From: Sphaerodactylus townsendi
Lineage: Eukaryota
Reading direction: 5' to 3'
DNA length: 64,000 nucleotides
NCBI RefSeq assembly: GCF_021028975.2
Contig: NC_059432.1
Span: forward strand, 64,852,001-64,916,000
The notes under the pieces were generated by a model. The model had not been told where the DNA came from. It made no database searches and saw only the letters and a program-made list of their open reading frames with translations. Positions 1 to 63,700 of the stretch are shown piece by piece (within the stretch, counting starts at the first letter, position 1; the number at the start of each line of letters is the position of its first letter). Position numbers and translations under genes: made by a program.

Positions 1-1100
1 TATTAGCAGAGACAGATCCTAAAGTAGTATCTTAAATTAACTCAGCCACCTCAAAGCTGAATAAAGTATATGACACTCCACCTTCCTTAAGATTTCTTTG
101 GGGGAGGGGGTAGCATGTCTTGGAAAGAAGTCAGCTTTTGCCAGTTTCCTTCGGGACTTGATGTCCATCAAGTTAATGGGAAATAAATAACTGCCTCTGC
201 ACTTCGTAGTTTTAAAGTATTAGCACAGTCTCAGCATAACAACATAATAAAGTGATGTTACAATCAGAACTACTGTTTAAAATCTTTTGTCTTGAGCTTA
301 CCTATTCTGATACTTCCCTATGTCGGAGCATTATCAATATTCCTACTTCCAACTGCTTGAACTGATGAGATTCTGCTAGCTGCCCTCCTCAAAAGCTTAG
401 TCGTTCTATAATGCTACTGATGAAAAAAAGGTGCATGGAAGACCCCTATTCCAGGCCAGACTCAGGTAAAGTAAGATCAGCTACATTATCCAGGGTTGTG
501 GCCTCAAAAACTCCTCTGGTGGCTCTTCCTATCTGGGGCAGGGTTATTATTATAGCATAAAAGAGTAGGCAGCAGCAAAACAAAACTTTCAGGCACAATC
601 CATATAGTACACAACACTGTTTTAAAGAGTGGGGGAAAATGGATAGGCCTCTTCAGTCACTATGACTGGAAGGTTCCCTGGCTTTCTGTTGGCCAGTGCA
701 GAAAAAAAAGAGTCAGTCACTCCCCTGAATCCTCTGCATGCCTATGAACTAGGAGCAGATGGGAGTCAGCCAGCCATCTTGTAAGCTTAGGAATGATGAG
801 AATCTCAGCACTTCCCAGCTCAGCATGAGAGAAATGAATGATCCTGCCTGTCCTGTCAGTATCTCACCTCACACTGTGCTTTTGGAGCACCTCCCAGCTC
901 AACACAAGATGACAGCCTGATGCTGGTTTTCAATTGCCTCATTCACAAATCTCACACTGTGGTGGGAAGCACTCCTAAAGGGTCAGAATCTCTACTGCTG
1001 CTGGTGAATGCATTCCGGCCTAGAGCAAGGCTGTTCTCTCATTGTGTGCCAAGAAATAGGGGCAAGGAGAGGCAACCCCTAAGAATGGTTGGCCCCTAAG

Positions 1101-1656
1101 AGAGCAGCAGGGGTGTAGTGATTAAGCTTTAGCTTCAAAAGGGGCTTGGATAGATTTATGGAGGAGAAGTCGATCTCTGGCTACCAATCTTGATCCTTCT
1201 TGATCTGAGGTTGCAAATGCCTTAGCAGACCAGGTGCTCAGGAGCAGCAGCAGCAGCAGGCCATTGCTTTCACCTCCTGCATGTGAGCTCCCAAAGGCAC
1301 CTAATGGGCCACTGCGAGTAGCAGAGTGCTGGACTAGATGGACTCTGGTCTGATCCAGCAGGCTCTTTCTTATGTTCTTAAGAGCAGGTGCCCTCTAACC
1401 TGGAGAAGCGGGTTTGATTCCCCGCTCTGCCGCTTGAGCTGTGGAGGCTTATCTGGGGAATTCAGATTAGCCTGTGAACTACCACACACGCCAGCTGGGT
1501 GACCTTGGGCTAGTCACAGTTCTTCTGAGCTCTCTCAGCCCCACCCACTTCACAGGGTGTTTGTTGTGAGGGTGGAAGGGCAAGGAGATTGTAAGCCCCT
1601 TTGAGTCTCCTAGAGGAGAGAAAGGGGGGATATAAATCCAAACTCTTCTTCTTCTT
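1101..1656 (+). mobile_element. Squam3-like (MIR/Ther1-derived) tRNA SINE, interrupted by a CR1-type insertion
   Basis: A-box head gtgtagtgattaag|agcagg, B-box ggtttgattcccc, core ctgggtgaccttgggctagtcac, (CTT)n tail. Imperfect TSD ttggcccctaag / ttggcctccaag. Confidence 0.8.
1127..1377 (+). mobile_element. CR1-type LINE 3' end nested in the SINE head
   Basis: ...aaaaggggcttggatagatttatggagg...gctggactagatggactctggtctgatccagcagg with tail ttcttatgttctta; ttaag duplicated at 1122-1126 and 1378-1382. Confidence 0.75.
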
Positions 1657-1928
1657 GGCCTCCAAGGCTCACCAAAATGCTCCCAGCAATAAGTACCTCT
1701 CTGCGAGTTGTAGTCTTTGAAACTCCTTCACCAGTCTCAACTGTGTGACTAGATGTGCACCCGTATGCAGGGTGGGACAGTCCAAGACAGGCTATTCGAC
1801 AAAAAAAGTGTGCCAGGGCAAACGGCTATGCAGTGTGTGCCTGAAGCGGGCATCATGCAGGGCGTTCCTTCCCTTTCTCAATCACCATTTTGTACTCTAC
1901 TCATCCTCCCACCAATCCTGTCACTAAC

Positions 1929-4900
1929 CCAAACTTGCGGATCAGCTTGGAGAGAAGGTTTCGCAGCTTCATGCGGAAGTGACGCCTCATGTCATCACTC
2001 ATGCCCCCGATCGCTTCTAGCTGTAAAGAGAACACTGGCATTAGAACTCTGGGCAGACGGCCATAAAGGTCCCCCCCTCCCCCAATCCACACACATCATA
2101 TCACTTAGGAAACAAGATTTGTCAGTCCAAGACCTCCTCCTCCCACTCCATCTCTCCCTCTGCTCCCATTGCTTTCTAAGAGCAGCAGAAGCAGCGCGGT
2201 GCCCTGTGGGCCTAAGGGCACTGTTACAGTTCCAACATGCACACAATAAAGTCTGTGCCAAATTCTAAATAGTTTTTTTGTGAGGCAGGGCTAGGATCAA
2301 TCAATGACAATGCTTTCTCCAACCCTTTTAAGAAAATTCAGATGCAGGCAAGCTGACCCTATTATCGTTCCCAGCACCCTCTTTCCCAATGCCTGCCCCC
2401 CAAATGCCACCCCTAACTCACCATGGTCTGCAGATGCCGTCCCAACAAAGCTACATCCAGGAGCAACAGCGCCACCTTGAGGAAGCCCAGGGCTGACTTG
2501 ACCACATCGCGTGTCCGAGAGCCTACCATGAGGCAGATATGCTGCACAAGCTGCTCTAAGGCAACTGGGCTGATGTGTTCTACAGGACAAAAGATCCACT
2601 TAGGAAAGGCACGCTCTGATTAATGTATTGTCGAAGGCTTTCACAGCCGGAATCACTGGGGTGCTGTGTGGTTTCCGGGCTGTATGGCCGTGTTCTAGCA
2701 GCATTCTCTCCTGACGTTTCGCCTGCATCTGTGGCTGGCATCTTCAGAGGATCTGAAGGTCAGTTCTGTTCATGAAGCTATTGGTCTTGTCCAGTCACTT
2801 TCTGGCACTCACGTTTCCTTACCTCATTCAGATCCTCTGAAGATGCCAGTCACAGATGCAGGCGAAACGTCAGGAGAGAATGCTGCTAGAACACGGCCAT
2901 ACAGCCCAGAAACCACACAATACCCCATGCTCTGATTCTTCAGATTCCCTCCCACACCCAGGTATGTAAGTGAGTTCTCTAGATTGCTACCTTACGTCAG
3001 AGAGTTGCCTTTCCCACAGGACCTCCCTTCGAGCATTAACAAACCAGCCCTGACCAAGCTGGAACTGAGGAGGCACAGGTTGGTGGGTACAGCTAGAGAC
3101 ATCTCCTTGCACACTCTGATGGAAGCACCCTTCTTTGCACAAATTCAGCTCAAGGATTCCTAACTGATCCCACCAGGAAGGTCAGTTCTGTTTATGAAGC
3201 TATTGGTCTTGTCCAGTCACTTTCTGGCACTCATATTCCCTCACCTTTGAACTCGAACAGCAGCCGAGCAAGAGCAAGAACAGTGCAGCTCATCATGTTA
3301 ACAGAGCCAGTCAAGCCTGCATAGACCAGGAGGAGGTACCGTTGCATTGCGTCTAAAGGAAATTGAAAAGCCAAGTGTTAGAGGATCCCCATCTTGTCTT
3401 GTCCTGGTTATGTTAAGAATAAGGCATATACAATCACATACAGCCTGTGACTAAGGCCTAAGCGGTTATTGCAGAAGATAGACAAGTATACAGAAATATC
3501 CATGGAGAGAGGAGAGTACATTCCCTGAATTCAGGTACCCTGGAGACAGTGAGAAGAACCACATCTCCAATCAATTTTTCTGGTGCATCAGAGGACAAAA
3601 GGGATGGCACAGAGATCCATTTCTGATAGGCCTCATGGGGAAGAGGACAGGAAACAGCTATAGGACCAATACAGCAATCTGAAAAGAGCAGCAAACCCTT
3701 TCTCTGAAAGCAAGAGGTTGGCTGGAATAAAAATTCAGCTCTCTGCAATATAAGAACAGCAAACAGGGTTCACAAAACTATGGCTAATGAGCAGAGTTAT
3801 TTTTTTATTGTTATTCTTTTAACTCCTTGCCTATTACATCAGTTATTATGACCTGTCTTCTGTCATAATTTAGGAGAAGGGAGGAGTATAGAATATGCAT
3901 TCTGAAAGCATTTACTGAAAGAAAAGAGAGCTCCATTTAAATATTTCTTGAGCAGAGTTATGTGTATTCTCTCCTTCAGCAAGTCTGCATGAAATATAGC
4001 ATCAAACGCCAGATGTAGATGCCTGAAGATTTTTTAAAAAATCACACTGCTTATAGTTGTTACCGTAATCTTGAATCCACGCAAGATGAATCCATGGCTG
4101 ACAAAATCTCAGAAGGTAAAAGGGGAGCCAAGTGGAATACTAGTGATCAGTTGGCTGGTTTAGGAAGTTGAATAGCTGACTCCTTCCCATTGTAACAGAA
4201 TTATATACAATAGAACGTGTGCTTTATTTGTTCAAATCTCACAACCCAGTAATCTAATGCAAAATGTGAACTGAACCTGCCCCCTACCAAATAATAGAAG
4301 CAAAGTTATGAAGCTCAGTCGGGTGGGGGGGTGGGGGGTGAACTATCAGGACAACTGCAGCACCATAGGTAGGAAAAAAGATCAGAATAGATAGGAGCTA
4401 GCAAGGATGTCGGTGATGGTGGGGAAACTAAAACCCTTTCTCCAATCCCAACATATTCATACAGCAATCCCAACATGGGTAACCAGGACTCACCATCTGC
4501 AGTAGGGCCAAAGCGCAGGAAGGCATGACCAATCTCTACAAGCAGACTGAAGGCATTCTTACGGGCACCCACAGATACCTCTTTGGTGCACAGTATCACC
4601 TACAGACAGCAAAGATATTCATCAGCGTCCTTGTATTGCTCTCAGCTAGGCCTAGAACAGGGGTAGGGAACCTGCTGCTCTCCAGATGTTCAGGAACTAC
4701 AATTCCCATCAGCCCCTACCAGCATGGCCAATTGGCCATGCTGACAGAGGCTGATGGGAATTGTAGTTCCTGAACATCTGGAGAGCCGCAGGTTCCCTAC
4801 CCCTGGCCTAGAAGTTTCCCCAGCACTGAGCATTTTAACAGTGCCCAAAACACCAAAACATAATGGGTACTCTCTTCCCACAAAACAGAAGATGAGAAAC

Positions 4901-7900
4901 TGCTAGGATTTCAGTTGGAGGAATACTGATCTGGCATAACAGCAAAAGATATAGAACAAACTGGGAAGGAGGGTGGTATGTCTGCCACTGCATTTGCCAC
5001 AGGCATGTCTGTGCAGAGAAAGTGGAAAAAGATAAATCATCATCTGTGGTCCAGTGAGATGTGGCTTTTCAGAATATATCTTTTTTCCTTTAAACTGTGT
5101 TTGTTTTGAAATACAGATTCAGCTCCTTGCACACTCCAGCATTCTAGGCAAAGAGTGACATTTCCCCCAGTCTTCTGATAAGCCAGCACATCATTAACTT
5201 TTCTGGTTCCTTAGCAGTTACCGTCTTCTTCTGTTCTTGCTCCACCTCACCTCTGGCACCAAGGCAGTGACAAAATCCTCATGCTCTGCCACAAGCTGTT
5301 TGACAACATGGAAGAGGCACTTCAGTCGGGGCTGGGAACAAAGGATGACAGATTGCAACATTTCAATGACAGCACCATGAATATCCCCTTCCATCCCTCT
5401 GCCGTACTTCTCAAAAGACTACTTTCACCATCTTCCCATCTCATCTTGCAGAGCAGTAATGTCTTCTCCTTACCCTCTTGGCAGGTGAGGCTGCGCTGGG
5501 CAAGGACTCCAGCAGAGCACTCTGCAGCTCCTTCAGGTGGCTCTCCACAAAGTTCTGACATGCAGGCCGCTCAGAGGCACACACCTCCTCCAGTACCCGA
5601 TATGCCTTCTTCTGGACCCCATGGTCTTTGTTCTAGGAATATGAACCAGACAGATGATCCTAGAGACACAATTTGCACTGATACACAAGGACAGAACCTC
5701 TTGTCCTCAGCTTTGCCCTATTCTAGTACAAAAGAGAAAAAGACAAATCCAACATCAAGCAGAATTATTGTATCCTAGAAATGGGAATTGCTAAGCCTCA
5801 ATTAGCCACATGGTTGTGATTGATTGTATGATTTTTGCTAGTGGAAATGGCATCACCTGAAAGTAGTAAGAGAAACCCACATGATTCGTCCTTTTGCATC
5901 ACATGTTTGGGTCATTTGGACATTTTCTCTGCAACAGGGAAGCAAATCACAAATAATGGGACAGCCATGTGGCTGAGAAATGTCTAAAAACGTGATATAA
6001 ATGGCATAGAACCTGCATGAGAATGGACATCTGATATGTATGACCAGGCATTTAACATAGACAATGAAAGGGTCTTTCCCAGACCACACCTGGCTAGAAT
6101 GGCAACACATCCTACACAAAGGTCTTCTATAGTATTAGTAAAGCTTCAGAGATCACGTCCCAAGGAAATACTGATCAAAATATTCCCCCACCACCACCAT
6201 TCCTGCCAACCCCTTCTACAACCTGTAACTGGACTTTTCTAAATGGAATGGGATACCCATTCACTTTATATCTACTGGCATATGCCCCATCACCACCACC
6301 ACCACCACCCACACTCACTTGCTTTGGCAATATTTGCTTTATATGTTGTACATCGCCCAGAGCCCTTCGGGGATGGGGCGATACAAAAATCCAAAAAATA
6401 AATAAATAAAATAAAAATAAATATTAACCTAGAAGTCTCAGTACAGTCAGAGAAGACAATAGTCAAACAGCAAGGATGGAGTTTGTGACAGATCAAGCCT
6501 ATCCTTTCTCGGTGATAGAGCAGCTCACCTGCAATGAGGGCTGGATGATATTGTAGAGAGAATGTAGAGACCTTTCATCAACATAGGGAGCCATGGTTAC
6601 AACAAGGTCCAAAATGGAAAGCCTGCAGCATATTTAGAAAATACAGCACTGTTAGCAAATACAGGTCTAATCATCTTTATGACTCCACTTTCTCCCTGGA
6701 ACTGAGTGAAATGAACTCTGCGGGCTGCTCACTGGCATGAACTTTAAGGCCTCACACCTTCTGAGCAGGGTCAGGACTAGAAAGGCCACAAACCCATCCC
6801 CAACTCTGGCCTGGACTGTACCTGGTAAACTCTGAGCTATCAGGGCTGGTCAGTTTCTCAGTAGCTTTCTCCAAGAATCCACACACCATCTGCAACAGAG
6901 ATAAGGCTGTCAATCCTACAGAGGCCCCTTTCTACATACATTTCTATAATCCACTCACTGTCTGAAACTGATTGTCATCCCAGCCCTTCAAGCCAGTGGC
7001 ATCCATGCCGTTTTGCAAAACTCTGCTCACCTGAGTCTCTGTGACTGTCAAATAGGCTCGGATAGTGTCCAGCACAGAGCGTCTTTGCACAGGGCTCTCG
7101 GTGGCAGCATCCTGTTGGCTATAAGCATTGAACAGGATGGGCAGGAAGTTCTTTGCAAAACGCCCAACCTCAGCACGTTCAGCATCTGCAAGGGGAGGCA
7201 GCGGAATGCAAGGCTGAAAGCCAAATAGGGGCAGTGCAGGGTACTTCTAGATGTTCACCAAACCCAGGCACAAATCATCAAGTATGTTGGAAACATAACG
7301 TAATCATTCTCTGCCTGGCTAAAACGCTATGCAGAAGGTAGATAATAAAATGGCACTTAGTTATTCTATAAGCAGTTAGCTCGGGGGGGGGGGGGGCGGC
7401 AAGAGGAACACAGAAGGATATTCCTTTACACAGAGCAAGGCAGGGCAATCCACAAAAAGGACTACATGGTGTGTCCTATGCACAGGCACGGACTGGCCCG
7501 TTCTCTCCTTTCTCTACTCTTGCTCTCCAGTAGGAAACACAACAAATCCAGAATTGCCACCACCAGTCAACACGATCAGTTCGGGGGGGGGGGGGTGTAG
7601 AAATGCAAGCTCCACTCCCACAAAGGGATCTCACCTGTCTGGCAACCCTTATTTATTAGCCTACGAAGAGCTTGGCAAACTATAAGCCGCAGATCCGGTC
7701 GGTCACTGATGGCCATTCCCAATGTGCGTGCCAGACCCTTGAACGAGGCTACTGTATCTGTAGGATGGGTGCAGAAACTGGGCAAGAGGTTCCAGACCTA
7801 AAAAGGCAGAGGGGAAAGATTAGCATAGTTGACTTCTACCAGGATGCACCCCAAATCTTGCCATGAAAGCCACAAAAGATACGATATAGAGCTATGGAGG

Positions 7901-10900
7901 TCCCTCCTCACCTGGCACTGCAGAGTATCGTAGATCTTGGCTTCTAAGTGTCGTTCAGCTTGGGCAAGGTCTGTGGCTACAGAGAGACAACAGAGAAGGT
8001 TTTAAAACTCAGTTTCTATCCCGCACTTTCCTGGCACAAGCCAGGCTCAGGGCAGCTGACAATACCATAAATGTACAATATCATAAAAATCTAACCAATC
8101 TAAAATGACACCCAGGTTACAAGTTTCAGCCACAGATGGTCAGACAAAAGATGCTAGAAGCAATTAGGAAAAGAATGACAATGCTTTAGTAGTGGGGCAC
8201 TGCAAGGTTGCATCGGTCATAATCAGCTCAATTCTGGTTGGATCCTGTCATGTCTCCGGGATGGGACATAGGATCCTCTGTCTCTCCTTCCCTCCCTCCT
8301 GACTGCTTTGTTTTAGTTTCAGTCCCCCGACAAAGTCTGGTTTGCTTGATAGACACCTGCTAGCTGTTGCTTTCCACAGTACCTGGGAATGTAGATTATT
8401 TTGACCTAAACGAAAGCAGTACTGTCTCTGGGTCAAAGGTTTGGAGGGGGTCAAAACCTTCTTGGGTTTTGAACACTCTCAATGTTCAGGGGTGGGGGGT
8501 ATGATGCGAAGGGGACTGATGTGGGCTATAATGGAAGGTGTTTTGGCCTTTAACCATTAGTTCTGACAACAGAAGTCTAAATGCTTTTCCCTAATGGTGT
8601 TTCATAATAAAGAAATCATCTGAACGCAGAGTCCCATTATTGAACAGTCCAGGGGCACAATAGTATACCCTGCAATGCTTTACCTGGCTGAAAAGAAAAC
8701 TTCCAAGTTGAAATTGGCTGCATTCAGACAGCAGTCATTAAAGTACAGCTGGGAACAAATATAACTTGTGATCAAACTGTTTACTGGGAAAGGAGGAAGA
8801 AGCAGGAACAACAATCTGGAACTTGGAAGTTTTCAATTAAGCTCCATGCAAAGGGAAAGAAAAGGGAGGCAGAAGCACAAGATCACCACAACAAGCTGTG
8901 CTTGTGCCTGAGCAATGTCTAATGACTGCTTACAGCAGGGGTGTCCGGCTCTGGTGCACCAGATGTTCATGGACTACAGTTCTCATCAGCCCGTGCCAGC
9001 ATGGCCAATTGGGACTGATGGGAATGTCCATGAACATCTGGGGCGCCAGAGTTGGACACCCCTGGCTTACAGCAACGCTGGAATCACTGCATGACTCAAC
9101 ATTTTGAATCAGCACTCCTGTAATCTTTGCATTCTGCATTCAGTACCCCAAATTCCAGGCTGATACCTAGGGAAGATGTTTATCTTAGAGAATGATTTTT
9201 ATTTCCCAGAATCTGCCATGGCAGATTGGCCAATGGCAGATTCCCCATACCATTTGCATAGTTCTAACGCAATTCTCAAATCCCCAAGCTGAAGTTTCTC
9301 TTGTTCTCTTCTGGGATCTGTGCATTTGTGCTCTGAGTTTAATTTGCCCATGCTCTCTATTACCTCTGTTTTTTAGAGTTGTAGCTAGTGGCAAGAAGTA
9401 ACTGCAGAAGAAGGCAAGGGGAGCATCATGGATGTGGTCCCGAAGCACAGGGAGGAGCCAGCTGCGAGGGAAATCCAGTCTCTCCCTATGGAAAAGGGTG
9501 GGTGGGTAAGAGAACAAACTCACATCTTGAAAGTATAAGAGGACTCAGGAAGTAATGGCATCAGATAAATGGATTTGGGCACTTTATTGTGTCCTCTCTA
9601 GTGCTTTCTGCTTTTGTTCATAAACCTCCTATAAGCCAGTGGAGGTGTGAAAGCCCCATGTAGTGAATGCCCTCAGTCTGAAAGTACGCTCAATAACTTT
9701 GTTTCAGAGTACTGGATAACACAAAGAAATGTAACAGTTTAAAAAGGCACTGTTTCCAAAGATGCTGGCCCTTCCTCTGTGGCAAACGTTGCTTTGCAAC
9801 ATTAAACAAAACCTCTCCAAGGTGCACGTACTGGCAGATGGAGCCTTTACACTTTTCTGCAGGCTCTGCAACCAAAATTTAAAAGGTGCTTGCTAACCAA
9901 AGTGTGGATGCCTTCCCCACATGTGCACTGAAATTACTGGTTTATCCGAAGGCTTTTTAACTGACTGCATTCTCCACAATGTAATACAAAAATGAAAGTC
10001 AAAACAAACCAAGAAACATCACTAAAATCAATAAAACCAGAAGACTAAAAGAAGCAATAAAAACAAAAGAGGGTAGGGGAGATAGCAAGGACATAAAATG
10101 ACATCACAACTCTTCCACAGGATGTGGCTCCAAACCCCATGGAGGCAGAAATCATACTCACTCTGTGCCATCGATATCTAGAGGCACAGCCTGCAGCACC
10201 ACTTCAGGCCCCATGGTAGCCACAGCAGCCCCAACAGCTTGGTCGAGAAACATGACGTGAGGAAAGTGTGAGGATCCACGCAGGTCAGCTAAAGATTGTA
10301 GGCACTGCAGAAGAAGGTAAACAAAGAAACAAGGGGGGGAGCTGTCACCTAATGAGAAGTACTTGCCACCAAGATATACAAAATAATTTCCCCTGTGTTT
10401 TCTCATCTTCTTATCATTCACTTCTTGATTCTCACACTATTTCCCCTCTTTAGTAATTCTGTACCTCAGAAACTCCATTTTTATTTATTTACAAAATAAA
10501 AATTCCATCTTTTTGCCCTTACAAGTGTTGCTAAGGCAGCCAACAATTGAAAACATACAAGATAAAATTTTATTATAAAACCATTAAAACATACATCATT
10601 AAAATAATTTAAAAAGAGTTAAAACATATAAAACATTGGAAAGAGGGATCACGGGAATGACAAACAAGACAGAAAAGACTTCACTTGCTGGTAGAAGACT
10701 GTAACAGAAGGAAATGGAAGAATCTCCCTGGGCAGAATATTCCAGAGCTTTGGTGGTGTGACCAAGAAAGCCTTCTCCTCAGTTGCCACCTGCCTGAACT
10801 CAGAAGGCAAATGCACCTGAAGCAAGGCCTCCGAAAGTGACCATAATGGTCAGGCAGATTCGTAAGGCATTAGGCAGTCCTTCTTGCAAGACTCTGAGAT

Positions 10901-38600: not shown

Positions 38601-40674
38601 ACTGGGCAGGCACTAGGACCACAGAGGTGCATTCAACTGCACAGAAGGTCTAGGAAATGGCTGCAGATTAATTCAGCATTGAGTTTCTATCTTTCATTGA
38701 GACAAGGTATAGCCTGTTTACTTCTTGGCTCATCAGTAACCAAGTTAAGAACAATTCTATTTTGTCCCGCAAGATCTGCCAGGATTACCTTGCATGTCAC
38801 TGTGGCTCCCACATCAGGTAGAAGTTGAGAATCTGCATCCCTCATTACACAGACCACTGGCAGCTGCGAAAAGCACAGAAAACTGGTATATCATCCCCTG
38901 GTTGCACTGAATCAGGCTGTCTGCTGGCACAATAAGCCAACTGCGTCTTTGATCTCCTCTGGATTTCCAGAAGATCACACACTGATTATTGTCTCACTGA
39001 CATCATCAAACCATGTAGCATATCCAACCCAACTGCTACCAATTTGCTTTATATTTACCATGCCATTCTCACTTTTCTTAATGAAACAACCTGCCAAAGA
39101 GGAAAATATAGAGCCATGACGGGTGTAGGTACCACTGCCAGGGGTTCCTTCCTCTAGGCTGCAGAGTCTCTCACCTGTGGAATACAATATAAAGGTGAAG
39201 TCAGTGCTAAGGCCCCAAGTCTGCCTGCCTGAGATAGCCTGTGTGCCCAGGCCCTTCCACATAGTACCTGGCAAAATGTTTTAATGTGTTAGAAAAATCA
39301 GCAGCAGCAGCATTGTGAAGTCTGGCCAATCCAGTGTTCCTCACCCAGTTTGTATGACTTCATAAACTAAGGCTACAATAAATGAAACAGGTAAAGATGG
39401 TGCCGTAGTGGAAGCAGGACCAGCCTGAGTATCTTAAACCTAGGAAGGGTACAGTGGAGTTAGTTGGTTGTTGTGGGTTTTCCGGGCTGTGTGGCCATGG
39501 TCTGACAGATCTTGTTCCTAACATTTCGCCTGCATCTGTGGCTGCCTTCTTCAGAGGTGTATCACAGAGGGAAGTCTGTTACACACTTGAGTTAGTGTAC
39601 ATGTTCAAATACATCAGAGGAAGATGTTTGTAAAGTGCCATTTCTCACACTCCAGACAAGGAAAGACTTCTCATTACTAAGAAAATGTCCAAAAGCATCT
39701 ATACTCCCTTAATTGATCTTTTGCTGATCTTCCTCCTCTGAGGTCTCAGGAGGGAAGAGGTAGAGGAAGAAGGATCACACCCACCATCTATGGGAGAAGC
39801 CAGAGCAGCTCCTGAACAAGATATCAAGTGATTTCATCAGGACTTCCAACAACTTTCACTCTACCAACTTGAGCAAGAATCATTCCATTCAATAGGTACA
39901 TTTTTTCTTTGCAATCCTTATACAACTATACAGATGACACATAAGCACTACTTTATATTGAAATTTCACTGTCTATCATGTGTGACTACATGTTTCTAAA
40001 AGAAAAAATAATCTGTTGTCTATAGCTAAGGACTGTATTACAATCCTATTCACTCCAACCATCAAACAGGAATTTGCACCACACATTCACGATACCTATT
40101 CAATAAAGTAAAGCAAAGCCAGACTGTTCCCAGAACTAGCCTACTATGCTACAGGCCCAAAGGAGAAATAATTGGCACAGCAATTATTGTCACCTACAGC
40201 TCACAACTTAAACCAGTCCAGGGCATCATCCTGGATAACAATATTCTCTCTCATAGGCCTTTGGGTGGCAGAGCTTTCCTTGCTGATTCAAAACAGCTTC
40301 TCATCAAGAACTACAGACTGTGTGACAGAAACTCAAATGTAGGAACCAAAACAAGCAGCAAACCTAGATGGCAGTTTTACCCCCACAAACATTCATGCAA
40401 TATCACAGCCATACTAATGAAGTTCAGAAACACGTGGTGGAACATATTACCTCCCAGGACATATTGTAGCCATTCTAAAGGTTACTGTTCTCCTTTAAAA
40501 TAATTTCACTGGAAGGATCTAAGGCCACAGTGATGAGCCATTCACAAATTCAAGGCAGTGTTCCTTCACACACAGTGAACAGGGAGCTTGAATGTCTCAT
40601 CTGCATAGCTCAACCTCCCCGCACCCCCCAGTCGCCATTCACCCACCAGGAACACAGTACCGCGCCGGGGCCAT
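35619..40674 (-). CDS. EXOSC1: Exosome component 1 (Csl4), 8 exons, 194 aa
   Basis: Exons 40647-40674, 39059-39174, 38789-38863, 37873-37961, 36998-37031, 36592-36642, 36401-36485, 35619-35725 (585 nt). Translation MAPARYCVPGERLCSLEEGTPGSGTYTRHG...SFRPGDIVLAKVISLGD...MVPISWCEMQCP...RKVARVQPQFLQT*. Confidence 0.97.
35778..36076 (-). mobile_element. Squam3-like SINE, EXOSC1 intron 7
   Basis: Reverse complement of the same SINE family. Confidence 0.85.
36486..36591 (-). other. U12-type (minor spliceosome) GT-AG intron, EXOSC1 intron 6
   Basis: Donor GTATCCTTTT; branch site TTCTTTAAC (36503-36511) ~18 nt from the acceptor AG; no strong polypyrimidine tract. Confidence 0.9.
37273..37571 (-). mobile_element. 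Squam3-like SINE, EXOSC1 intron 4
   Basis: (GAA)n tail on the + strand, followed by the family body and tRNA-like head. Confidence 0.88.
39465..39588 (-). mobile_element. Single Penelope-like pLTR fragment with a degenerate hammerhead, EXOSC1 intron 1
   Basis: Closely similar to the 63352-63604 arms; flanked by gagttagt (39457-39464 and 39589-39596). CTGAAGA core intact, but helix II and the GAAAC motif are mutated. Confidence 0.8.
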
Positions 40675-60700: not shown

Positions 60701-63700
60701 GAAGACAAAAATGGAAGAGCTTGAAAGAAAGAGCTTGTGCCAAACGCTCATTGCCAGAAGGAAAGAAAGCAACTCTTTCAAACGAGATCAAAATATAAAA
60801 GCTAAAAAACACAATTTATTGGGCTTCCCTATCACAGGAAAGAAACTAAAGCATAGGTCTTACATGATATGTTTTACCATGGCAAAACATAATATATGGC
60901 AACCAAAGTGGTCTGAAATTAGAGTGGTGAAGAGAAAGGGCTAACTAAGCAACACACACAGAAGCCAAATGTGCTACCTCTTTCCAGTGTAACTAATTCA
61001 TTTTATCATTTTAACTTTAAAAATGACAGAACAGTACAGCATCAGCTGTTAGGAATGAATCAATTCCAAGACAATTCTGAAAAGCTCAAACACCTGCCAT
61101 CCCCCCCGCCCTTCCCGACCACAGCACTGGGCCCAACTTTGCCCCTGCATTTCACCTGGTCTGGGAATCTTCCTCATGGAGAATGAATCGAGCCAGGCTG
61201 TCCACAAGTCTATCCACATCTGGGAAATCCAGGAGCCCTGCAACAGGAAAAATTGCATCTACATTTCTTCCCTTGCACAGGGAAGGGAACACAGCACTGC
61301 TTTTTCTGACTTGCTGTATTGTAGACCACTTCCTATAATCTGTCTAGTGCTCCTAAAGTCCAGCTAGCATGAAATAAACTGGAAAAAAAAACCAACTGTC
61401 TGAAATCCAATCACCTAGCTATATACATGTGGCAGACCATGCCAGACTGCACACTACAGGGATCTGCACACATGAGAAATCCAGAAACACACCAGAAGAG
61501 AAATCTTCTAGCAAAACATAATGTTTCCTGGGGGCATCACTCAACCCATACAGAGAGAAGGAGGAGAAGAAGAGTTTGGATTTATATCCCCCCTGTCACT
61601 CCTGTAAGGAGACTCAAAGGGGCTTACAAGCTCCCTTCCCTTCCCCACTCACAACAAACACCCTGTGAGGTGGGAGGGGCTGAGAGAGCTCCAAAGAACT
61701 GTGACTAGCCCAAGGTCACCCAGCTGGCATGTGTTGGAGTGCACAAGCTAATCTAGTTCACCAGATAAGCCTCCACAGCTCAAGTGGCAGAGCAGGGAAT
61801 CAAACCCGGTTCTCCAGATTAGAGTCACATACCTTGCAGTAATCCTAAGAAGGTCAACGCTCGGATCCCAACCAACTGTAGTTGCACGTTGGGCTCAACA
61901 AGTGCTGAGAACACCATGGAGCACAGAGCATCTTTGGAGCAAAGCAGGGGACTCTTGTCTGGAAGAGAAGGAGAGAGAAGCAGCTAGTGTTATTTTGCTT
62001 CAGAGCCTTGGGAACTAATGTTATGGTATAAATTACAAATCAACAGTGCAGATGTTAACAGGAAGCCAGCTCGCACCTTCTTCCTCAGGACCCCACTTCT
62101 GCCGCAGCTCCAAGAAACCAAGGAGCACCTCCAAGATTGTCCTACGCTGACTACTCTACAAGAGATCAAAAAGACACAGGCTGAATTAGGGGGGTCAAGA
62201 ACATGGAAGAAGAGGCATGATTCAAGGCTACTGTCCTATGTCGGCCACAAGCCAAAGCAAACTCCAAGGGCAGATGTAGAATAACCCACAACCAAACTTT
62301 CCCTAACCTGCAACTGGGGCTGCCAGTTCCATCACCATGATCCTCCACTCCAGCACTTACTTGCAAATGCTTGTTATACTGCTCCACCAGTAATGGAAAC
62401 ACATTGCTTGTGATCTGGTAATAAGCCCGCAAGGAACCCCCTGCAGCTGCCTGCAGGAGCTTTGCACTCGGCCACACCAACTTCATGTCTGGCTCACACA
62501 GGTGGTGCCTGCAATCTGAAGCAGGCAAGACTGCATATGAGTGAGATAACAGAAGCCCCAAAATCCCCATTAAAATCCCACCAAAAAGCAACTTTTCTCC
62601 AACAGGATGTTGCTCATCTTCAGAATTTTAAGGCTGAGCAGAGAATTTATTCTCTGTTCCTACTTCCCCAAGTTAACAGTAGGAACAGTTTCCACCCCTT
62701 TCTCTAAAGCTGGACAGCAGATGCCTTCTTCTCCTAAAAGGGTGTAATTTCCTCCCAATAGAATTGTGTGAATGGAGTCTCTTCTTCAAGTGGCTGCCCA
62801 GTCAGTATTAAGTATTTATATGCTGCTTCTGTCCTACCACCGCTCCAATGTCACCCAGCATGTTTTCATGGTCCAATGTCACCCAGCATGCTTTCATGGC
62901 AAAGCAAGAATTCAAACCTGGTCTCCCACATCCTAGTCCAAACCCGTAACCACTATGTCACACCATCTCTTGTTGAAAGGTACACTGCTCCTGTGGAGTT
63001 ACCCTTCAAAATGCCTCCAAGGAAGGAATCCAGAAGGTCCTCATCATCTGAGCTGAGCACTGAGCGCGACAGGCATGTTGACAGAGAACGCAAAGTGGAG
63101 AGACCCTCTGTTTCAATCCTCTCACTTGCTGTCTGGAACACCTGGTCCGAATGGGAGGGAAGGGAAGGAAGGAAGGAGAATCAACTCTCCATGCAAGAGT
63201 TTGCCCTGTTTATAAACTAGACAAGAATGGGACTCCAGAATGCAATCAGCATTCCAGGAAGTCCTCAGGAAACAACCTGTATTCCGCAAACAGGTCAAAG
63301 TGGCCCTTTGAGTACATTTCTAGACAAAGAGGGGGAACAAAGGCTACATATGCATTGTCGAAGGCTTTCTCGGACGGATTCAACTGGTTATGGTGGATTT
63401 TCTGGGCTGTGTGGCCGTGGTCTGGTAGATCTTGTTCCTAACATTTCGCCTGCATCTGTGGCTGGCATCTTTCAAGGTGTATCACAGTGTAACAGACTTC
63501 TCTCTGTGGTATACCTCTGAAGATGCCAGCCACAGATGCAGGCGAAACGTTAGGAACAAGATCTACCAGACCATGGCCTTACAGTCCGGAAAATCCATTA
63601 CAACCAAAGGCTACATATATTTTCCCAGGAAACAAAGCCCACCTCACCTCCCATACAAATTCATTTCTCTCACCTCTCTGCGCAAGGATGACCAGAGGCT

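Follow-up and report, generated by a model that had tools for sequence, protein, structure and literature searches.

In LINE-1 twin priming, a nick in the second target strand primes on the same RNA, which inverts non-overlapping parts of the element. EN+ Penelope-like elements (PLEs) carry an inverted, head-to-head 5' pLTR, a one-sided tail of 30–40 bp and a short target-site duplication (TSD), with a TATA box and an initiator (Inr)-like motif in the pLTR and captured host DNA beside it (PMC8557442, PMC3846280; here and below, a citation covers the accessible part of each report). A promoter has been placed in the pLTR (PMC2377424, PMC3846280), and self-priming on an antisense template has been proposed (PMC3846280).

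Minimal hammerhead ribozymes (min-HHRs) have a helix I of 4 bp, an unpaired base ahead of helix II, no helix III or loop 3, and a palindromic ACGU (PMC4209133). A single min-HHR does not cleave (PMC4209133); cleavage has been described for dimers (PMC4209133, reviewed in PMC6765202). Dual min-HHRs on opposite strands, 100–700 bp apart, were already reported in PMC4209133, the accessible text of which offers no evidence of cleavage in vivo. PAc, a Poseidon element of Anolis carolinensis, has two reverse transcriptase (RT) start sites, and its protein cuts and extends both strands in vitro; its hammerhead was cleaved only with its protein, at a site 26 nt after the start codon, and insertion required RNA reaching ORF +172 (PMC11167929). 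In the accessible part of that report there are no head-to-head stubs and no genomic distribution of 5' ends. Non-LTR retrozymes (bioRxiv 10.64898/2026.07.22.740005) are, in the portion of the preprint available, non-coding, PLE-derived and equipped with a type I hammerhead, as is the insertion described here; they are direct tandem repeats with at least two hammerheads on the same strand, whereas the present insertion is inverted with one per strand.

Here we describe an insertion in a window of 64,000 nucleotides of Sphaerodactylus townsendi DNA (contig NC_059432.1, positions 64,852,001 to 64,916,000, forward strand; all coordinates below are those of the window). We consider it probable that this is a single 316-bp Penelope insertion of the Poseidon type, in which two hammerhead-bearing ends stand head to head, and that it is inert in its RRP12 intron. 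It shares with EN+ PLEs the inverted head-to-head pLTR, the one-sided tail, the short TSD, the TATA and Inr-like motifs and the captured host DNA; unlike them, the insert consists of the two ends alone. Inverted pLTRs, a one-sided tail and opposite-strand hammerhead pairs are already in print; the literature searched yielded no report of Penelope twin priming or of genomic copies whose 5' ends fall at the cut, and subscription papers or the supplementary figures of the PAc study could contain one.

An insertion in an RRP12 intron

The host intron lies on the minus strand, with its donor GT at 3244–3243 and its acceptor AG at 2581–2580. The exon downstream of the insertion (2422–2579, minus strand), read from 2579 to 2422, matches residues 939–985 of the RRP12-like protein 7wts_K (E = 1.2e-12); none of three RRP12 exon fragments was recognized by Pfam. 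Within this intron, a repeat finder returned two inverted arms of 101 nt each, at 2657–2757 and 2827–2927, that are 96% complementary and 69 nt apart. We number each arm from position 1 at window 2757 (minus strand) or 2827 (plus strand); in this numbering, helix I is formed by 7–10 with 46–49, the ATG lies at 17 and the predicted cut falls after 45.

The long arm (2657–2757, minus strand) is a segment of the pLTR and ORF start that is sense to RRP12, and its native context is seen in three other genomic copies (L033, L040 and L057). Only this arm continues into a 35-nt tail (2622–2656, minus strand), whose end falls on the distal RT start site (ORF +120); the spacing agrees with PMC11167929 as far as its text is accessible. 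The short arm (2827–2927, plus strand) is antisense to RRP12 and ends at the proximal RT start site, at about ORF +85. The two arms have four differences (2850, 2908, 2920 and 2921), all of them C>T or G>A and all in the short arm when compared with the common family sequence.

Direct reading of each arm gives the parts TCCT, CTGAAGA, helix II, GAAAC-GTC and AGGA, and both arms have the CUGANGA and GAAA cores, the NUH triplet, helices I and II and the 15.2–16.2 palindrome of min-HHRs. The predicted type I hammerhead of the long arm (2709–2751, minus strand, predicted cut after 2713) is an exact match to the 43-mer that we counted genome-wide, and that of the short arm (2833–2875, plus strand, predicted cut after 2871) carries a single substitution in the region of helix II, at 2850. 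A preliminary description of this DNA had reported back-to-back intact minimal hammerheads on both strands at these places in an RRP12 intron, and we find them there; the dimer-type architecture that it gave for PLE pLTRs likewise agrees with PMC4209133, including the 4-bp helix I, the unpaired base ahead of helix II, the absence of helix III and loop 3, and the palindromic ACGU. The 21 Rfam matches with E ≤ 10 to window positions 1–8000 include no hammerhead family, so our call of a predicted hammerhead is based on direct reading and on the printed layout of the anole element.

The left TSD copy (2613–2621, plus strand) is exact over 9 bp and reaches 12 bp (2610–2621) if one CpG-type change is allowed; the right copy (2929–2937, plus strand) follows from direct reading and from the empty site. 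The insert edge is 41 nt from the acceptor, where the earlier estimate was about 40 nt, and the pyrimidine tract and acceptor within those 41 nt are intact. Between the arms is a 69-nt filler (2758–2826, plus strand), a 93% copy of 3177–3246 in the same intron that is entered through a 4-nt GAAG microhomology and that is missing from the empty site. Its source (3177–3246, minus strand) comprises the authentic RRP12 donor (GT 3244–3243) and the first 66 intron bases, and the filler carries a decoy 5' splice site, with GT at 2822–2821 on the minus strand. As RNA, a 380-nt stretch of the minus strand is predicted to fold with –242.8 kcal/mol (z = –19; 0 of 100 shuffles equally good).

We compared four DNA runs at the locus: X3 (organism A), X4 (organism B), X5, and X7 (organism D). 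In X3 and X4, contigs enter the insert from both ends and the insertion is present. In X7, one contig joins 2612 to 2929; this is an empty site that lacks the arms and the filler and retains one copy of the duplication. The same run has a G at 3235, which matches filler base 2813, indicating that the filler preserves a base that was later changed in its source. The target duplication together with the empty site show that the locus records one insertion event.

Two older relatives of the arms, about 80% identical, lie elsewhere in the window at 63350–63592 and 39466–39557, and the first of these is also a head-to-head pair.

The insertion belongs to an abundant family

We counted family copies by exact patterns in the 1.81-Gb genome and found 2,134 matches to the junction 16-mer, 13,667 to an arm 29-mer and 8,991 to the intact 43-nt hammerhead; among the first 100 listed places with an intact hammerhead, 6 were head-to-head pairs exact on both sides. 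In the parent copy L033, the arm continues 5' into an RT frame that Pfam matches to RVT_1 with E = 7.7e-07 (29.5 bits against a cut-off of 29.6), and 3' of the RT we saw by eye a GVY...YIG motif; two fragments gave no Pfam GIY-YIG match. The stub itself has no ORF. The pLTR overlaps the ORF start and contains the hammerhead, and the 35-nt one-sided tail, the TSD of 9–12 bp and the inverted 5' copy reproduce the EN+ PLE layout. By eye, the printed RNA template of PAc is collinear with the arm, and as in PAc the ATG is at the start of stem II, the cut is 26 nt after the ATG, the target is AT-rich and the arms end at two RT start sites, one at either end of the tail (accessible part of PMC11167929). 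Judged by this collinearity, the family probably belongs to the Poseidon clade of Penelope elements.

Two other identities were rejected. A non-LTR retrozyme would have direct tandem units with motifs on the same strand, and here there is an inverted pair with one motif per strand; a self-propagating palindromic mini-element of MITE type is ruled out because junctions and fillers vary from locus to locus and the filler here comes from the local intron.

To describe typical insertions, we sampled 110 loci chosen by the mid-arm 29-mer among the first places listed on contig C1; our samples overall are the first places listed, mostly from contigs C1–C6. Automatic classification of 115 insertions as pair or solo gave 67 head-to-head pairs and 48 solos, some of which are halves of decayed pairs. 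Both hammerheads were intact in 6 of the 67 pairs and one in 18, and 8 of the 48 solos had an intact hammerhead. A lenient finder detected duplications of at least 6 bp in 52 of the 67 pairs, 23 of them of 12–13 bp. The copy in the RRP12 intron is a clean yet typical member of its family.

Native copies fall into two pLTR subfamilies (L033, L040 and L057 versus L054 and L055) that are distinguished by 5 nt in the stretch from the TATA-like box to the hammerhead, and stubs of the two are expected to begin at different positions. A second abundant family has only the hammerhead core in common with this one and diverges at both core edges with consistent flanks; these edges are at L033:1546 and 1587 in RNA runs X23 and X24 (loose-end agreement 0.77–0.9) and, with weaker agreement, at window 2709 and 2750 in DNA runs.

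Pairs combine two 3' ends and often agree in their 5' ends

When we classified the 3' ends of both arms, 55 of 58 classifiable pairs had one long arm (about 134) and one short arm (about 101), while 2 were long-long and 1 was short-short; this excess is significant (binomial p = 2e-13), and the remaining 9 of the 67 pairs had 3' ends that did not fall into these classes. Of the 48 solos, 24 were long, 18 short and 6 other, so both sites serve for priming. The long and short arm ends match both published RT start sites of PAc (PMC11167929, accessible part).

The 5' ends are concentrated as well. Across 182 arms, which include 6 self-matches to the references, 44 begin at positions 4–6 and 77 at positions 0–10. 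In 48 of 67 pairs both arms belong to one 5'-end class, compared to 24.2 expected by permutation (0 of 20,000 permutations as high). In the native sequence, a TATATATA box lies 30 nt ahead of position 4, which itself falls within the initiator-like sequence TCAGATC. These motifs suggest that transcription may start near positions 4–6; if it does, internal priming gives complete run-off cDNAs of 100–130 nt. A GATC palindrome at 5–8 and a short native inverted repeat are features that would favour joins at the same place. Two other origins of these ends were considered. A wholly fold-back origin of the TCAGA at the arm start was dropped, as native copies have CATCAGATCC, and we gave up a splice acceptor as the source of the fixed 5' end, since the truncated copies have no upstream exon in common.

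Some arms begin at the predicted cut

A second cluster of 5' ends is found at positions 43–51 (17 of 182 arms). We counted, genome-wide, patterns in which an arm starts at position p with three mismatches forced upstream of p, and obtained 40 at p40, 69 at p44, 72 at p45, 130 at p46, 40 at p47, 76 at p48 and 40 at p52. The raw peak at p46 is only 1.7- to 3.3-fold over its neighbours; it is one base wide. Position 46 is the first base past the published cut, which lies between 45 and 46, 26 nt after the start codon (PMC11167929, accessible part).

We examined 69 distinct places among the 130 at p46, together with the first 20 each at p40, p44, p48 and p52. The p46 places comprise 50 pairs, 15 solos and 4 indels. 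In 13 of the 50 pairs the partner arm also begins exactly at 46, in 6 cases without a gap and in 7 across fillers of 2–135 nt; the partner begins at 46 or beyond in 33 pairs and at 20 or before in 15. None of the 43 control pairs had a partner that began at the same base; it began at 46 in 1 of them and at 46 or beyond in 12, where the control counts contain indels (13 of 20 at p40 and 5 of 20 at p48) and the p48 pattern is blind to gap-free palindromes at 48. The difference in same-base partners (13 of 50 vs 0 of 43) has a Fisher p of 1.5e-4, or 0.012 when the 6 gap-free palindromes are left out. Since the partner lies at 20 or before in 15 of 50 pairs, a single cut template is insufficient for all of them; 7 of these 15 were joined through AGGA microhomology. 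Taken together, these counts make it likely that the small share of sister copies that begin at the predicted cut is a fossil record of hammerhead cutting in living cells. We lean towards reading the stub pairs as run-off records of two RTs primed from opposite strands on one RNA, mostly up to its capped start, and the 46/46 pairs as the result of protein-assisted cleavage in the germ line after which the 3' product still served as template.

It is possible, if on the unlikely side, that the peak at 46 reflects pausing of the RT on structured RNA or AGGA/TCCT microhomology used in repair, and not ribozyme cleavage. Joins at 46 do show microhomology of at least 3 nt in 8 of 50 cases, with 5 more that have 2 nt common to position 60. 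Cleaved RNA ends were seen neither in two RNA runs of organism D nor in the accessible part of the PAc study, which shows no reads ending at the cut (PMC11167929). Read starts and ends from those runs did not pile up on L033, either at the cut or at the proposed start; the reads are unstranded and fragmented and thousands of copies are embedded in other transcripts, so that they cannot reveal such ends, and organism D lacks the RRP12-intron insertion. In PAc, the shortest active 5' truncation of the RNA began at +20, and a cut RNA would begin at +30 (PMC11167929, accessible part). On the other side, a pause as an independent event in each arm predicts a partner at 46 at the background of 3 in 182 arms, compared with the 13 in 50 that we found; microhomology is absent from all 13 same-base pairs; and the peak coincides, to the base, with the published cut (PMC11167929, accessible part).

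We judge it unlikely that the pairs arise by fold-back or self-priming, in which one cDNA or an antisense template copies itself into the second arm and an endonuclease trims one end, leaving the tail. This would account for the long-plus-short pairs, for the matching 5' ends and for the small hairpins at many junctions, and at the RRP12 locus both arms start with TTCAGA, as expected if an end had folded back onto itself, where the native sequence has ATCAGA. Three observations argue against it: the solos that end at either site (24 long and 18 short of 48) imply two priming sites; same-base agreement occurs at 46, is absent from the four control positions and extends to pairs with fillers of 2–135 nt; and the PAc protein extends both strands in vitro (PMC11167929, accessible part). 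PMC3846280 proposes antisense self-priming, whereas our counts favour twin priming on sense RNA.

Fillers at other loci were also inspected. In L141 (the same place as L098), both arms begin at 46 with a 135-nt filler between them, a SINE-like 5' piece that has 94% identity across 96 nt with a copy located about 700 bp from it; a similar SINE filler is present in L261. The L141 filler could have arisen at the cut end, through template switching or through ligation of RNA. Short local matches of 12–16 nt are present in the fillers of L049, L146 and L233. No other filler matches locally at such length and uniqueness as that in the RRP12 intron.

The insertion within RRP12 RNA

As RRP12 is on the minus strand, with its donor at 3244–3243, transcription meets the antisense arm first and the RRP12 RNA holds one sense hammerhead. 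The preliminary description had said as much, and had further proposed that the antisense arm locks the ribozyme in a duplex and that this silencer may explain why the copy was tolerated. A full duplex is indeed predicted: in the whole insert, and in nascent RNA ending at the hammerhead, the pair probabilities of helices I and II are 0.0. We find no support for a lock particular to this copy, since any head-to-head pair self-locks on both strands, or for a role of the lock in tolerance. Of 30 exact intact hammerheads, 17 have antisense cover (two pairs counted twice), 2 have partial cover and 11 have none. The motif on its own, with no antisense arm present, is already predicted to prefer another fold, with a helix I probability of at most 0.02; the computed monomer and dimer folds do not favour the active fold, and with one sense copy per strand a dimer could form only in trans. 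The RRP12-intron copy stops at ORF +120, short of the +172 required for PAc insertion. A silencer is unnecessary to account for the tolerance of this copy.

Two effects on RRP12 were weighed. It is quite improbable that RRP12 output is altered, either through competition between the authentic donor and the one copied into the loop or through editing or Dicer drawn to the 101-bp stem. The decoy (GAG/GTAAGG at 2823/2822) does stand beside the authentic AAG/GTGAGG in likeness, 422 nt downstream of it, and it sits at the top of a stem whose base is 41 nt from the acceptor; against this, the insertion is common to organisms A and B in a conserved ribosome-assembly gene, and in the predicted fold some of the decoy is base-paired. 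It is likewise quite improbable that RRP12 pre-mRNA would be cut by the sense hammerhead and that the copy survived only through the lock: the antisense arm is made first with a full lock predicted, both motifs are intact, which is true of only 6 of the 67 sampled pairs, and 17 of 30 intact copies are covered, but 11 of the 30 are uncovered, the isolated motif is predicted to misfold, monomers are inactive (PMC4209133, accessible part), the protein and the RNA to ORF +172 that the anole homologue needs (PMC11167929, accessible part) are absent in the stub, and the intactness of the motifs is consistent with young age, the arms being 96% alike.

Discussion

We propose that such pairs likely arise by twin priming on one RNA that is sometimes ribozyme-cut. 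The element protein would nick both target strands about 12 bp apart, with priming at the distal start (about ORF +118) from one nick and at the proximal start (about +85) from the second. Both cDNAs would run off the 5' end of the RNA, usually at the TATA/Inr-like start just ahead of helix I, in which case stubs are complete products, as opposed to random truncations. For a few percent of events, the hammerhead would already have cut the RNA, and both arms would start at the cut. The cDNA ends would then be joined by microhomology-type repair, and the duplex that locks the hammerhead would be a by-product of the head-to-head geometry. Both arms here copy the same 100 nt, unlike the products of LINE-1 twin priming.

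Templated end-joining of the polymerase theta type leaves filler that is entered through microhomology and copied from flanking DNA. At the RRP12 locus, both arms reach position 1–2, which would correspond to an uncut RNA, and the left cDNA end may have jumped through GAAG onto flanking DNA 240–310 bp away and copied the donor region; we infer this repair step from the sequence and from what is known of templated end-joining.

The RRP12 locus is common transposon debris, and we see no sign of a regulatory switch there. The family statistics address two open questions raised in the literature, the in vivo cleavage by minimal Penelope hammerheads and the origin of the inverted pLTR with its one-sided tail, and they yield base-exact predictions for the existing PAc in vitro system. 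Unlike in the accessible part of the PAc report (PMC11167929), genomic 5' ends here peak at the TATA/Inr-like site and at the cut. If our reading is correct, the 46/46 pairs would show what the in vitro paper could not, that is, germ-line cutting and use of the 3' product as template, and the head-to-head inverted pLTR of Penelope would result from twin priming with sense RNA as the template, instead of from antisense self-priming.

Two further repeats lie in the window. At 4652–4811 there is a 160-bp palindrome with 80-nt arms that are 93% alike and have no spacer; it has weak matches to miRNA families that are under the gathering scores, the same sequence is found upstream in L059, and it is likely a MITE-type repeat. 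At about 1380–1640 there is a SINE-like repeat with a CTT-run end, also present in L044 and L055, which we take to resemble squamate SINEs.
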